DNA from: an uncultured Acidobacteriota bacterium
Lineage (GTDB): Bacteria; Acidobacteriota; Terriglobia; UBA7540
Length of the DNA stretch: 51,152 nucleotides
Assembly: GCA_964438685.1 (NCBI GenBank)
Contig: CAYTMD010000001.1
Span: 1-51,152, forward strand
Direction of reading: 5' to 3'
Shown here: positions 35,302 through 38,750 of the stretch, piece after piece
Layout of the letters: each line of letters opens with the position of its first letter
How positions within the stretch are numbered: position 1 is the first letter of the stretch
Position numbers and translations under genes: made by a program
The notes under the pieces: generated by a model
What the model was told of the DNA's origin: nothing
Database searches by the model: none
What the model saw: the letters and a program-made list of their open reading frames with translations, nothing else

Positions 35302-35342
35302 GCCCGGTGGCTACTCTTTATGGGTTGGGTGGCGATTGAATA

Positions 35343-35358
35343 TGTTTCACGTGGAACA
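35343..35358. promoter_or_regulatory. parS: parS centromere-like site 1
   Basis: TGTTTCACGTGGAACA is the reverse complement of the canonical TGTTCCACGTGAAACA. Confidence 0.8.
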
Positions 35359-35519
35359 TTCATATTGCGGATCAGGTCTCCTCGCCGGGTGCAAATCCTC
35401 CAAGGCCCCCAATTTACGTATTTTCCGGCCAATCACAATTTGCAGCACCTGCCGAAGATCGAGGGATGGCAACAAAGTGACGACGTCTTTCCTGGCCCCG
35501 CGGTTCGGACTACCAAAGA

Positions 35520-35535
35520 TGTTTCACGTGAAACA
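35520..35535. promoter_or_regulatory. parS: parS centromere-like site 2
   Basis: TGTTTCACGTGAAACA is a perfect 16-bp palindrome matching TGTTNCACGTGAAACA. With flanking bases, ATGTTTCACGTGAAACAT is an 18-bp palindrome. Confidence 0.85.
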
Positions 35536-35799
35536 TATCACCCCCACCGCATAAGAACCGAGACTCACATCCCCTGCCAAAGCACCTTGGTCCCCGAATA
35601 TCGACCCGAGACCCGGCTGAAAGGGCGGATACAACATCCTTCCAACGCTCGAAGTATCTAACTTTGACCTGACAGGCACGCCCACGAATCCCAACATCAT
35701 GTATGGGACCGAATTACTAGCCCCACATCTCGCGGCGCATTAAGGGCAACACAACCTGTCAGCCAATCATCGGAGAGCCACCGGCGCTGGGTAGTGTCC

Positions 35800-35829
35800 T
35801 AAAAGTGTGTTGCTGGTTGATGGCAGCAA
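35800..35829 (-). terminator. possible terminator after the two-gene ORFan operon
   Basis: Minus strand: TTGCTG ccatcaac CAGCAA, then cacac and TTTT. Confidence 0.35.
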
Positions 35830-35832
35830 AGA

Positions 35833-36360
35833 TTAGAGTTCTTCGTCCATTTCTGGTAGCTGGGAGGGGTCAAGGCGGCGGATAAGGAATTTCAAGAGTT
35901 CTTCTGCAAGTCCGTACGGAGAGAATGGCTCATTGAAGTAATATGCCACGACCTGACCGCCGATAGAAGCAGCGAGGAGGATTTTCAGGGCTTCTTCCCC
36001 CTCCGTCCTTTGTGGCGGAGTTCTGTAGAGGATAATCAGTCTTTCACCTTTGCGGTAAGACAACCGCAGGTAGGCATCTATGACGGTGGGTGAGTCTCTA
36101 ACAGCGGTAACGCGTAGGCAGGATGCCTCTTTACCCCTCGGATCAGGAACGAATTTGGAGCATATCGACACTCCAAGATGCGCACAGTCTTTCCCTTGAA
36201 CTTGTAATTCTCGGCACAATTCCTGCCAGAAGTCCAGGCCTTTACACTGGACGAGGATTGCATCGGCATCCTCGCGGGCCTTTCGCGCTTCCTGGCGCAG
36301 CCTATCGGAATCATTCCGGGCAATGACTGTCTTTATCCATGGTGTCGATACGGTGCTCAC
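35833..36360 (-). CDS. hypothetical protein (no recognisable family)
   Basis: 175-aa ORF, 11 nt downstream of the preceding minus-strand ORF, in the AT-richer islet. Confidence 0.5.
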   Translation of the reverse strand: MSTVSTPWIKTVIARNDSDRLRQEARKAREDADAILVQCKGLDFWQELCRELQVQGKDCAHLGVSICSKFVPDPRGKEASCLRVTAVRDSPTVIDAYLRLSYRKGERLIILYRTPPQRTEGEEALKILLAASIGGQVVAYYFNEPFSPYGLAEELLKFLIRRLDPSQLPEMDEEL

Positions 36361-36371
36361 GGCGCGAAATC

Positions 36372-36776
36372 CTACGCTCGGTCCTTGAAATCGTCAAGGC
36401 TTCTTAGCGATCCCGCGCAATCCTCGGCGCGGTCGCGTATTTGGTCGATTACAGAAGAGAACTCTCTCCCTGTCTCTAAAACTTTCTCTAACCCCTTGCG
36501 AATAGTCACCAATTCGGTTCGGGAGTCCTGGGTTAAACCTTCGATTGCGATCAACTCTTTGCGAGTGGATATTTCCCGAAGTGCAGAGCGGATTTCACCG
36601 AGCAGGGCGGCGATATCCCGGCAGTCGCTTGACAGGTGATCCTGAGATTTTTTGGTCTCCGAGTTGATTTGTTTGAGTTCATAGAGAAGGTGTTCTCCGA
36701 GATTGAAGGAGGCGCCCAAAACTAAGAAAATTAAAAGCAAAAGGGCAACTCCCACGTATGCGGCGTAGGTCAGCAT
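36372..36776 (-). CDS. hypothetical membrane-anchored coiled-coil protein
   Basis: ATG at 36776 with GGAGG 7 nt upstream. N-terminal TM (AAYVGVALLLLIFLVLG), then a heptad-rich helical region. Confidence 0.5.
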   Translation of the reverse strand: MLTYAAYVGVALLLLIFLVLGASFNLGEHLLYELKQINSETKKSQDHLSSDCRDIAALLGEIRSALREISTRKELIAIEGLTQDSRTELVTIRKGLEKVLETGREFSSVIDQIRDRAEDCAGSLRSLDDFKDRA

Positions 36777-36837
36777 TGGGAACCTCCGGTTTGACAGTGG
36801 TGATAGCATACCAGAAATCCAAAAACACTGGCCGGCC

Positions 36838-37218
36838 ATGAGCGAAGAACGCAAACGCAGGGCGCAAGACACGGGGATTACGAAAACGGACTACGAAGGA
36901 GCGCTCTGGATGGCCCACATGGAAAGACTCCGCGCAAACATAGCGTATTGCCGCGAGCCGGGGGAGGAGATCCCCGACCCCAGTGAGTATCTTGAGCCTT
37001 GCGAGAGCGGTGATTCTTTTGACGAAGAAATGAAGAAGCTGATTGCGGCTGCGGACCGGGCGTTTCACGATGCATCTCTGCGGGTGCAGAAGCGGGTTGA
37101 GGCTTGGAACAAGCTGCAAAAGGAAACTGAAAGACAGGCGCGAAAAACCGCGCTGACTGCGCCAGAAGGCTGGGATTCGAATGGTCAAGGTTTGTTGTTT
37201 AAGCAGAAGCCAGACTAG
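36838..37218 (+). CDS. hypothetical protein
   Basis: 126-aa ORF, divergent from 36776 across a 61-nt spacer. Charged and helical. No family recognised. Confidence 0.45.
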   Translation: MSEERKRRAQDTGITKTDYEGALWMAHMERLRANIAYCREPGEEIPDPSEYLEPCESGDSFDEEMKKLIAAADRAFHDASLRVQKRVEAWNKLQKETERQARKTALTAPEGWDSNGQGLLFKQKPD

Positions 37219-37355
37219 CGCAGTACTTTTCCTTGGTGGTAGGATACCAGAAAAAGCAAAGCCCCGGGTGGCTTCGGGGCTCGAAGTGCGGGTATTTCAC
37301 GTACCGCATTCCATTGTAGGATGTGGTCCGTGGAAATCAACAAAGAATGTTCCCT

Positions 37356-37667
37356 TCAGCGCTCCTTTGTCGAAAGTAAGACAGAGTGTCCACCTTCAAA
37401 TCGAACAACGAGAACCCAATCTTCAGGGGAAGATTGGGTGAACGCAAAAGATTCTGCTCCCGATAAATTAACCGAGCGTTCTTTGCTGGAATCTACCTCG
37501 CGAAGCAGCATTGTGGAGGAATCCGGCGTCACCTCAACGACGGTCGCATCAAATAAATACGGAACGCGGCCTATTCCCCAATCAACGGAAAGTGGTCTTC
37601 CTGGAGGGTTTTCGGCAGCGCTACATCCCCTTAGTAGTGATATTACATCGACAAAGGATATCGTCAT
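37356..37667 (-). CDS. hypothetical protein
   Basis: ATG at 37667 preceded by AGGAGG. Its composition is more protein-like than the overlapping Ser/Thr-rich plus-strand ORF 37321-37833. Confidence 0.3.
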   Translation of the reverse strand: MTISFVDVISLLRGCSAAENPPGRPLSVDWGIGRVPYLFDATVVEVTPDSSTMLLREVDSSKERSVNLSGAESFAFTQSSPEDWVLVVRFEGGHSVLLSTKER

Positions 37668-37834
37668 GTTCCTCCTGATGGTGCGAAGGTTTGGACTCGA
37701 CAAGGCGATTTCTTTAATTTGTGAGTTAGATCAACCGCTACCTCACCATCTCCGGCTTGCCATCGATATTTATGTGAATTCTCCGAGCCATTGTGCGAAT
37801 AGTACTCCTGATCTCCCACTGCAGAAATCCTAAT

Positions 37835-37987
37835 TTACGCGGCTTCAAGCAACTCTGGAAGCGCCCAAACGTGATCGCTTAACCCCGCTTCCATATACGG
37901 AAACTATATCGATCCCATACCAGCATATTTTCCCTTGCGTGGTGGCGACCGGCAATGTAGATTAGACACCTCGGGCGTTCTTTTCAT
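37835..37987 (-). pseudogene. relic of a DDE transposase C-terminus
   Basis: Minus strand reads MKRTPEVSNLHCRSPPRKGKYAGMGSI*FPYMEAGLSDHVWALPELLEAA*. The P.M.AGLSDHVW..ELL tail resembles, from memory, the conserved end (..TPAMAAG[IL][ST]D[HR].W...EL.) of IS1/IS1595-type transposases. There is an in-frame stop and no N-terminal body. Confidence 0.4.
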
Positions 37988-38004
37988 AGGGGACCTCGAA
38001 TTGG

Positions 38005-38075
38005 TGGTGGAGCTGAGGGGATTTGCACCCCTGCCGGACAGGTTGTCAAGGCCCCCGGCGCGCTAAGCCAGCCCC
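38005..38075 (-). ncRNA. tRNA-Ala / tmRNA-like acceptor plus T-arm mini-gene (possibly a degenerate ssrA remnant)
   Basis: Minus strand: GGGGCTG...AGGGG TGCAAAT CCCCT CAGCTCC A CCA. It has a 7-bp acceptor stem with a G3:U wobble, an A discriminator, an encoded CCA and a 5-bp T stem. The 36-nt interior forms only a GCCGG/CCGGC stem, with no D or anticodon arm. Confidence 0.45.
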
Positions 38076-38085
38076 AAATTTGCTG

Positions 38086-38133
38086 ACCGCCCGCTTTGGC
38101 TCATACCTAAGCGGGCGGTTTCGTATTTATTTC
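38086..38133 (+). terminator. rho-independent-type hairpin
   Basis: ACCGCCCGCTT (38086-38096) / AAGCGGGCGGT (38109-38119) followed by TTCGTATTTATTT. No obvious plus-strand gene lies upstream. Confidence 0.4.
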
Positions 38134-38163
38134 CATTCCTCCTGCTCCAATAGAACCGGGAAA

Positions 38164-38239
38164 CTAAAAAAGCCCCGCATTGGAAAAACCGAGACAGGCT
38201 TACTTTATGCCTGCCTTGACCTTTGCCAATACGGGGCTT
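38164..38239 (-). terminator. long hairpin plus T-run after the small basic protein gene
   Basis: AAGCCCCGCATTGG (38170-38183) pairs with CCAATACGGGGCTT (38226-38239) at 13 of 14 positions. On the minus strand it is followed by TTTTTAG. Confidence 0.5.
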
Positions 38240-38290
38240 GTTTACTTCTTCAGCTTCCCGCAATTCTTGCGCTAGTTTCCGCCGAAAATC

Positions 38291-38482
38291 CTAGACTGCA
38301 TCCTTTGCACTGTCAAGCACAGATTTATATAGAGTATTCTCTTCCTTCGGAGGGCGGCCACCCTTGCGGGCCTTGCGTTTTGCCTGGAGTTCTCTAAAAT
38401 AATCGGGGCCGCGCTCGGCGATGGCCTTGCCCCCGATCCGCCCCAAAGCGACAGCAGCGGGGTTCTTTTTGGGTTTTTCCAT
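38291..38482 (-). CDS. small basic protein (KNPAAVALGR.GG motif)
   Basis: 63 aa: MEKPKKNPAAVALGRIGGKAIAERG...KRKARKGGRPPK. The motif recalls widespread small uncharacterised proteins. Confidence 0.5.
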   Translation of the reverse strand: MEKPKKNPAAVALGRIGGKAIAERGPDYFRELQAKRKARKGGRPPKEENTLYKSVLDSAKDAV

Positions 38483-38750
38483 GCGCCAATATTCCTAAGG
38501 GCGCTCGTTGTTAGTCAAGGGCAAAGTCAGCGCCAGCAACACACAATTAGGACACTACCCGGCGCTGCTTCCGCATAACCAGCGATTCCTGACCGCCCCC
38601 TATTCCCACCTTCTGCCCCACGATTATGGCGACCAAACTCCGTTCCAAGTGATTCAAATGCCTCGAACTCGACGTCCATCAAGGCATAAACCCGTGATCC
38701 CCGGATTTGCTTGCCGTTTTACCTTTGCGCTGTGTAGGATGACTTCTTGA

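Follow-up and report, generated by a model that had tools for sequence, protein, structure and literature searches.

A 71-nt element on the minus strand of the 51,152-nucleotide stretch of Acidobacteriota DNA analysed here (the window) is probably a functional gene for a small, tRNA-shaped and non-decoding RNA, which we call class W; the element is carried as a passenger of an IS1-like, transposase-less cassette between rsmG and hemH. Homologues of the element share a conserved, covarying tRNA-shaped fold with alanine determinants, and class W genes are mobile, as cargo of both transposons and phages. The family is apparently undescribed, although it extends from soil bacteria to ultra-small bacteria and phages; in the limited library searched, the literature held no description of such bacterial or transposon-borne RNAs. 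Charged but non-decoding tRNA-like RNAs are rare and informative, tmRNA being the main example, and here a compact, structurally supported family with an alanine identity set escapes both ARAGORN and Rfam while spanning very distant lineages.

The element reads, from 38075 down to 38005, exactly as an earlier note on this DNA had written it: GGGGCUG, 36 nt, AGGGG-UGCAAAU-CCCCU and CAGCUCC-A-CCA (its parts are listed in Table 1). That note had allowed the interior a 5-bp stem with a 17-nt loop and nothing else. The 5-bp stem is there, but it is preceded by a 9-nt mini D-hairpin (GC-UUAGC-GC) and, past a 2-nt bulge, continued by 3 bp that close a loop of 9 nt, and both interior features, the mini D-hairpin and the long arm, are backed by covariation among homologues. 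The single-sequence folding of the element is cloverleaf-like, yet no more stable than that of shuffled sequences (z -0.34).

Standard gene finders pass over this locus. ARAGORN called 0 tRNA or tmRNA genes anywhere in the window, no Rfam family matched the element at its gathering threshold, and the same searches on 13 homologous loci called nothing at the class W elements. At a permissive threshold the Rfam tmRNA model (RF00023) aligned both ends of the element locally, with 28.5 bits against a gathering score of 47 and with 328 model positions deleted, and the best Rfam family by bits was mascRNA (RF01684), with 31.5 bits against 42.5. These results below threshold mean that the earlier description was accurate, but that the standard detectors neither confirm nor explain the element. 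A permuted two-piece tmRNA (RF04321, E 0.037) was rejected as well, because GGGAUCG, which it puts forward as the 5′ strand, and CAGCUCC are not complementary. Annotated plasmids and phages, searched with BLAST, yielded partial matches to the 3′ end only, without annotation. The covariance-model check that had been proposed for the element succeeded with a model of its own relatives: R2, built from ten homologues of other genomes with the window sequence left out, matches the element at 76 bits (E 3.7e-15), while the runner-up in the whole window reaches 12.8 bits, and this match to a model of the other members places the element in class W. A canonical tRNA, taken here as a cloverleaf whose D-stem has 3-4 bp and D-loop 7-11 nt, whose anticodon loop of 7 nt is closed by 5 bp and which includes a variable loop, it is not: ARAGORN is negative, no Rfam tRNA appears at gathering, and the fold differs from the standard cloverleaf. 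Reading the loop of the long arm as an anticodon was also rejected, since the would-be anticodon varies and the loop of the window copy is not closed as a 7-nt loop.

Table 1. Features of the class W gene, its flanks and the surrounding cassette, in window coordinates.
Feature	Position	Strand	Evidence or remark
tRNA-like mini RNA gene (class W), 71 nt	38005..38075	-	model R2 and covariation in 16 homologues
Acceptor 5′ strand GGGGCUG	38075-38069	-	
Mini D-hairpin GCUUAGCGC	38068-38060	-	
Long bulged arm GCCGG-GGG-CCUUGACAA-CCU-GU-CCGGC	38059-38033	-	
T arm AGGGG UGCAAAU CCCCU	38032-38016	-	
Acceptor 3′ strand CAGCUCC	38015-38009	-	
A73 and CCA	38008-38005	-	
Stable hairpin (CCGCCCGCUU...AAGCGGGCGG), 11 nt upstream of G1, no U-run	38087..38118	-	-26.4 kcal/mol, z -5.8
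Flank directly 3′ of CCA, core 37941-37978	37928..38004	-	85-90% identical in several unrelated peat-metagenome contigs
Non-autonomous transposon (mobile insertion cassette), 2,770 bp, rsmG-hemH intergenic	35790..38559	.	insertion seen by BLAST, inverted repeats at both ends, duplicated target site
Left terminal inverted repeat GGTAGTGTCCTAAAAGTGTGTTGCTGG	35790..35816	+	
Right terminal inverted repeat GGTAGTGTCCTAATTGTGTGTTGCTGG	38533..38559	-	
8-bp target-site duplication CGGCGCTG, left copy	35782..35789	.	
8-bp target-site duplication CGGCGCTG, right copy	38560..38567	.	
Cassette ORFan genes	35833-36360, 36372-36872, 36838-37218, 37356-37703	-, -, +, -	
Gene E, 63-aa basic protein, neighbour of the inverted repeat that is conserved across this cassette family	38291..38482	-	
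Long hairpin and U-run, intrinsic terminator of gene E	38165..38239	-	sequence; hairpin folded by F6/MIR161 local matches

The family came to light through a scan of one genome per species with the pattern GGTGCAAATCC-N6-CTCCACCA, which returned at least 119 loci; at least 13 of them are short elements not called by ARAGORN, in each of which the 3′ strand has a pairing partner of the form GGGGNNN, 32-39 nt upstream. A narrower metagenome scan contributed L123 and L124, which are closely related to the window element and show compensatory changes, and a further member (L208) came from viral contigs. The 16 aligned members belong to Acidobacteriota, a gammaproteobacterium, Patescibacteria (Saccharibacteria, Doudna- and Uhrbacteria), unclassified metagenome-assembled genomes (MAGs) and two viral contigs, and they share one fold, composed of a 7-bp acceptor, a mini D-hairpin, a bulged arm, a T arm and A73. 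The mini D-hairpin has 9-12 nt, takes the form G-N-[..NAG..]-N-C and consists of 2-4 bp closing an NAG or GG loop; the long arm, of 8-9 bp in all, is built of an outer stem (4-6 bp, mostly 5-6), an inner one of about 3 bp, a 3′ bulge of 1-2 nt and a loop of 7-11 nt. The T arm directly abuts this long arm and is followed by the acceptor 3′ strand and ACCA.

Across the 16 members, 94.3% of the cells of this model are paired, against 68.9% in shuffles, and both sides change in 16 of the 22 pairs, including all 8 of the long arm and both of the mini D-hairpin, in an alignment that was itself fitted to the model. The covariation score is 0.628, against 0.139 for shuffles (0 of 500 reach 0.628) and at most 0.112 for slid registers. 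Two members (L014 and L096) hold the RNA at the same trxB/efp locus despite very different interior sequences, and these genes, like those of the Patescibacteria, sit in housekeeping neighbourhoods. A conserved protein partner was sought among the neighbours of class W genes and none was found, these being trxB/efp, ksgA, ileS, an ABC transporter, a methylase, MazF, transposases and ORFans; tblastx of the islet in the window against all loci gave no match. One Saccharibacteria contig (L015:32-2603, +) has its class W RNA antisense inside an open, repetitive, surface-protein-like frame of 857 codons, which may be a read-through of several genes.

These data bear on the alternative that the element is a decaying pseudogene or an assembly artefact, a functionless deletion derivative of the host ssrA or tRNA-Ala gene. 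Gene finders do miss it, and the DNA around it is ORFan and low in G+C. Against this, independent assemblies of at least 7 metagenome runs, belonging to 4 studies, contain the same 71-nt sequence, homologues in distant phyla hold length and fold through compensatory changes, and the element lies within a transposon that a gammaproteobacterial homologue also uses, all of which makes decay or artefact highly improbable. Of the three origins offered by the earlier note, a small tRNA-like RNA is the one that finds support, as a member of a conserved covarying family; the other two, a collapsed ssrA gene and a mobile-element attachment relic, are not supported, as described below.

The alanine character that had been read into the acceptor is borne out by the sequence of the window element, which combines G3:U70, A73, G1-C72, G2-C71 and G4-C69 with an encoded CCA. 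The G3:U70 wobble is present in 16 of 16 members and never replaced by A-U. The way in which the family was collected limits what such conservation tells: the scans were biased toward the UGCAAAU T-loop and CUCCACCA, and 15 of the 16 members were found by patterns requiring CUCCACCA, so that the constancy of U70, C71, C72, A73 and CCA in them is ascertainment. Free of this bias are only G1-G4, which the genome scan did not impose, and the viral member L253, which was retrieved through its transposon repeat and not through a tRNA pattern. The latter has a GGGGCAG/CUGCUCC acceptor, A73, a standard UUCAAAU T-loop and a GG D-loop, and its class W RNA is without an encoded CCA. Since AlaRS charges any acceptor helix bearing G3:U70, class W RNA would be expected to be alanylated.

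With tRNA-Ala, or an alanine minihelix, class W has in common the acceptor stem, the discriminator base, the T arm, the elbow contact and a length of about 71 nt, from which it differs in a D-stem cut to 2-4 bp with a loop of 3-5 nt, in having no variable loop, and in an ‘anticodon’ arm of 8-9 bp, bulged and with a 7-11 nt loop, where the would-be anticodon is UGA, UAU, UGC, UAC or others. Anticodon-less look-alikes of alanine-type tRNA with a different build were also encountered, one on an Acidimicrobiales chromosome (OZ257146.1, L077:6204-6273, -) and one in a Dehalococcoidia (OZ220672.1, L072:3039-3099, -); the former has a normal D-arm, but in place of the anticodon arm it carries 4 bp capped by a GCAA tetraloop.

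The T-loop of the element has a G where a second U is expected, as had been pointed out; this is no anomaly, UGCAAAU being the regular T-loop of many genuine tmRNAs. The scan pattern often coincided with the 3′ end of a normal tmRNA called by ARAGORN (in Elusimicrobiota, Acidobacteriota, Patescibacteria, Desulfosporosinus and Mollicutes), while its matches in viral contigs were mostly permuted two-piece tmRNAs. Of these genuine tmRNAs, 12 of 13 have UAG in place of the classical UGG in the D-loop analogue; likewise, the class W members with a UGCAAAU T-loop show NAG in the D-loop, and L253, with UUCAAAU, shows GG. Resting on the established tertiary pairs of tRNA, this pattern looks like covariation of the 18:55 elbow contact. 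Arrays of tRNA genes in metagenomes (L121/L125, L122) include tRNA-Ala(CGC)-like genes with the UGCAAAU T-loop, and the G55 variant thus occurs in full tRNAs too.

The resemblance to tmRNA calls for a closer comparison. The element shares with the tRNA-like domain (TLD) of tmRNA (RF00023), and with the TLD-only tmRNAs of jakobid and oomycete mitochondria, the GGGG...CUCC acceptor, G3:U70, A73, CCA and a T arm; like them, class W has no decoding anticodon, and the UGCAAAU T-loop with an xAG D-loop is found in many genuine tmRNAs. Unlike them, class W lacks the UUCGAC analogue, the GGAC and G-A junction, the geometry of helix P2, the tag frame and the pseudoknots, and the window element is borne by a transposon and is not the ssrA locus of its genome. 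That no tag ORF or pseudoknot region lies between the acceptor strand and the T arm had been seen correctly, there being only 36 nt. The proposal that the element is an ssrA gene collapsed to its tRNA-like domain finds no support in the two signatures that such a domain would keep: the D-loop analogue, xxUAG or UGGxUUCGAC, and the GGAC before the T arm are both missing. The acceptor with G3:U70, discriminator A and (A)CCA is that of a tmRNA, whereas U(G/A)GxUUCGAC after the acceptor and GGAC before the T stem are absent from the window element and from all class W members; the UUCGAC analogue and GGAC are both present in 12 of 13 genuine tmRNAs and in TLD-only minis. With this signature missing, class W is tRNA-like with alanine identity and not demonstrably a tmRNA domain.

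One could still suppose a reduced ssrA, as in jakobid mitochondria, whose product would work with SmpB and EF-Tu to gain access to stalled ribosomes, where it would contribute one alanine but no tag. In its favour count the acceptor stem, A73 and CCA, which match tmRNA and tRNA-Ala, the alignment of the Rfam tmRNA model to both ends of the element, and the T-loop and D-loop combination of genuine tmRNAs. Furthermore, unmistakable TLD-only minis exist, in an Ekhidna MAG (L044) and in at least 8 viral contigs, among them L136, L176, L197, L167 and L230, with the form GGGGGAA-ACUUAGAUUCGAC-short hairpin-GGAC-T arm-ACCA. Yet these true minis keep xxUAGAUUCGAC after the acceptor, a short P2 stub and GGAC before the T arm, none of which is found in the window element and its 15 relatives, which have a mini D-hairpin instead and whose long arm directly adjoins the T arm; ARAGORN is negative, and the Rfam score lies 18 bits under gathering. 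A mini-tmRNA is therefore an improbable reading of the element.

The TLD-only minis deserve a description of their own. They measure 67 nt in L044 (2563-2629) and 69-70 nt in the viral copies (L136:995-1064, L176:2450-2519, L197:5043-5112, L230:1121-1190 and L167, 3151-3219, -), have xxUAGAUUCGAC after the acceptor and neither tag nor pseudoknots, and are called in no case by ARAGORN; longer forms of this type occur in L162, L241 and L244. In the viral contigs synteny is conserved, the RNA lying between a protein of about 190 aa, with a below-cutoff HTH_23 match in the one tested (L197), and one of about 75 aa, followed by a protein of about 500-550 aa, and the Ekhidna copy adjoins a tRNA-Gly gene.

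As to its genomic setting, the element lies within an insertion. Homologues of hemH assign the organism to the class Terriglobia of the Acidobacteriota. The nearest relative (L126, hemH 96% identical) has rsmG and hemH 785 nt apart, without such an RNA and with a single copy (GGCGCCG) of the target duplication at the empty site, and BLAST comparison with it places a 2.77-kb insertion in the window. Its ends are 27-bp repeats, identical at 25 of 27 positions and of the form GGTAGTGTCCTAA(AA/TT)GTGTGTTGCTGG, which match twice in the window against 0.00 expected. Inverted repeats at both ends, a duplicated target and a relative with the site unoccupied mark it as an IS1-like mobile insertion cassette; its repeats start with GGTAGTG, and the ends of IS1 are GGnnnTG. 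The cassette is lower in G+C (0.51-0.53), and at least positions 36423-38521 recur almost unchanged in a strain with 3-5% divergence in the flanking genes. Its ORFs match no Pfam or NCBIfam family (the one at 37356-37703 is an ORFan), and transposase and integrase domains, sought in them, were not found. Gene E has 45 homologues, in Acidobacteriota/Terriglobia.

Such a cassette is hardly the place for an attachment-site relic of an integrase-type island targeting ssrA or a tRNA gene. It is true that the 3′ ends of ssrA are common integration sites, with real cases at hand (L002, L042 and L080, on JBKPNQ010000034), and that the element lies in an inserted islet. That islet, however, ends in inverted repeats and an 8-bp duplication, 458-484 nt from the element on one side and about 2.2 kb on the other; the duplicated bases, CGGCGCTG, are not tRNA sequence, there is no integrase domain, the element retains both acceptor strands, and its 3′ half has no direct repeat. 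The 11-nt match to the T arm that had been noticed at 35388, and that could pass for a second copy, is due to chance, such a match occurring in 88% of simulated windows: it actually measures 12 nt (GGGTGCAAATCC, 35387-35398), lies outside the cassette, scores 9.5 bits (E 3.4) with the model, and is already there in the empty-site genome L126, which is without the element. Inverted repeats, target duplication, empty site and chance match together refute the relic, to which we give practically no credence. What such a relic looks like can be seen on the Acidobacteriota MAG contig JBKPNQ010000034.1, where three copies of a tmRNA 3′ end mark islands integrated in tandem into ssrA in the classical manner, a positive control (L076, L054 and L109 belong to the same group of loci); two of the three are preceded by a conserved ‘cagcagtttgaccagaa...’ segment.

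The chance match falls between two parS-type palindromes, TGTTTCACGTGGAACA and TGTTTCACGTGAAACA, at 35343-35358 and 35520-35535 (35342-35359 and 35519-35536 with the flanking A/T), in the rsmG-hemH intergenic region. They are conserved in the relatives L126-L129, which suggests an origin-proximal partition site, and the same intergenic region is also an insertion hotspot for cassettes.

The repeat family of this cassette is not confined to the window. In a gammaproteobacterium (L017), the same repeats with 8-bp duplications bound an IS1-family transposase, a MazF-like gene and a class W RNA; the transposase matches NF033558 with an E of 1e-19 and 71 bits, below the curated NCBIfam cut-off of 100. 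In the viral contig L253 they enclose a methylase, an odd tRNA-Gly and a class W RNA, and in an unclassified MAG (L106, G+C 0.64) a left-end repeat only lies 1.1 kb from a class W RNA, with no right end within the fetched sequence. Cassettes of the same family without a class W RNA (L130, L370, L373) mean that the RNA is optional cargo, not needed for transposition. More than 10 further pairs of these repeats show perfect 8-bp duplications, many of them MITE-sized. Gene E adjoins the inverted repeat in L370 and L373, and it is followed by an IS1-like DDE gene, a faint match, in L374-376; a search for inverted repeats flanking the IS1-like genes in L374 and L375 gave none. The window cassette thus resembles IS1-family elements and mobile insertion cassettes in its terminal inverted repeats, 8-bp target duplication, passenger genes and lack of a transposase, and differs in that the window holds no autonomous partner and the L017 transposase match is below the NCBIfam cut-off. 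To our knowledge, a tRNA-like RNA has not been reported as cargo of IS1-type or mobile insertion cassettes.

Viral contigs (L253, L267, L268, L284, L294, L297, L327, L342, L359 and others) carry a large family of MITE- and cassette-sized elements, of 220 bp to 5 kb, with GGTAGTGTCCTAATTTGA terminal inverted repeats and perfect 8-bp target duplications, nested in the case of L327. The cargo of the repeat family includes, besides the DNA methylase of L253, an ImmA/IrrE-HTH protein and an adjacent ORF of about 158 aa without family match in L130, a toxin-antitoxin-like pair.

The flanks of the element raise a further alternative, in which the tRNA-like fold would act in cis as a processing signal, cut out by RNase P and a 3′ nuclease, so as to separate or insulate the transcripts of the cassette from read-through, the RNA itself being a by-product. 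Precedents for such processing are mascRNA at the 3′ end of MALAT1 and the tRNA punctuation of mitochondria. The architecture of the element is like that of mascRNA, the best but below-gathering Rfam match given above; the L017 class W RNA ends 16 nt before the ATG of the transposase, and in L106 the RNA is separated by 3 nt from the stop codon of the 399-aa ORF that precedes it. Hairpins without U-runs also precede the RNA in four mobile copies: that of the window is the probable 5′-leader hairpin of a precursor (Table 1), and in L123, L208 and L017 a comparable hairpin precedes the RNA at a distance of 3-16 nt. Speaking against a cis signal, the chromosomal members stand alone with their own -10 boxes, 10-16 nt upstream of G1; a strong terminator separates the window element from the gene upstream; and RNase P needs no G3:U70, A73 or encoded CCA, yet the wobble is kept in 16 of 16 members. 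We consider a purely cis-acting role unlikely on these grounds.

mascRNA and MEN-beta RNA (RF01684) are indeed like class W in being miniature cloverleaves with a D-arm of 2-3 bp and a non-decoding, anticodon-like arm, and RNAs of this type are released by RNase P. mascRNA is, however, a by-product of a eukaryotic nuclear lncRNA, without the G3:U70 alanine identity and with CCA added afterwards, and the match, below the gathering score, is an analogy and not homology. A bacterial comparison is offered by tRNA-Other of Bacillus cereus, a pseudo-tRNA next to a genomic island (PMC3399842), which is likewise a non-translating tRNA-like RNA associated with mobile DNA, but which has a full cloverleaf with an anticodon arm, a different identity and no sequence relation to class W.

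To return to the reading that we favour, a functional gene for a non-decoding RNA carried by the cassette, its product may be pictured as follows. The RNA would be transcribed with a 5′ leader, hairpin-bearing in the window copy, and cut by RNase P at G1, to leave a molecule ending in CCA that AlaRS would charge with alanine. The loop of the mini D-hairpin would contact the T-loop, and the bulged arm of 8-9 bp takes the place of D-stem and anticodon stem; with no anticodon loop of tRNA geometry, the RNA should not decode. The charged form would probably be bound by EF-Tu. Its action would most likely pass through the tRNA-handling machinery of the host, either as a decoy or sponge for enzymes directed at acceptor ends, T-loops or aminoacyl-tRNA in genetic conflicts, or as an alanine donor or rescue factor outside normal decoding. 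Among the possible roles we rank a trans-acting decoy or alanine donor highest, ahead of a cis signal for processing or insulation, and place SmpB-dependent rescue last of the three.

More tentatively, as something possible rather than probable, class W could be an unrecognised class of tRNA mimics that move horizontally, are charged with alanine and have no anticodon, disseminated by IS1-like cassettes and phages, fixed in the chromosomes of Patescibacteria and acting in trans, be it as decoys that shield the tRNA pool from toxins and from defence or counter-defence enzymes aimed at acceptor ends, T-loops or aminoacyl-tRNAs, or as template-independent, tagless alanine donors on stalled ribosomes. 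If this were true, these mimics would form, together with the TLD-only mini-tmRNAs of phages, a hidden layer of tRNA-end mimicry in microbial conflicts. An RNA that is charged and abundant could affect AlaRS, EF-Tu, RNase P, the CCA-adding enzyme and tRNA-targeting toxins, and would open a new way to see how the translation apparatus is manipulated by mobile elements. In any case, class W genes are at present left unannotated and can be mistaken for tmRNA fragments or integration scars, which a covariance model would fix.

Some observations on the surroundings of these genes remain. Among RNA sequencing runs none contained the window locus, and three metatranscriptomes of the same study were empty over 10 kb there; no RNA run matched the L017 locus either. 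A TTGACA-like hexamer lies 5-20 nt past the CCA in 9 of 9 chromosomal class W genes (L014, L015, L034, L047, L058, L096, L099, L116 and L117), as exact TTGACA in seven, TTTGACA in L047 and TTGACT in L116, and is possibly the -35 box of the next transcription unit. The peat-metagenome contigs that share the 3′ flank of the window element have depths of 40-60x; in one of them a different tRNA-like 3′ end (GAGGG UUCAACU CCCUC UAGGUCC ACCA) directly precedes the shared flank, and in another the core of the flank resembles a TTGACC-N17-TAGATT promoter on the opposite strand.
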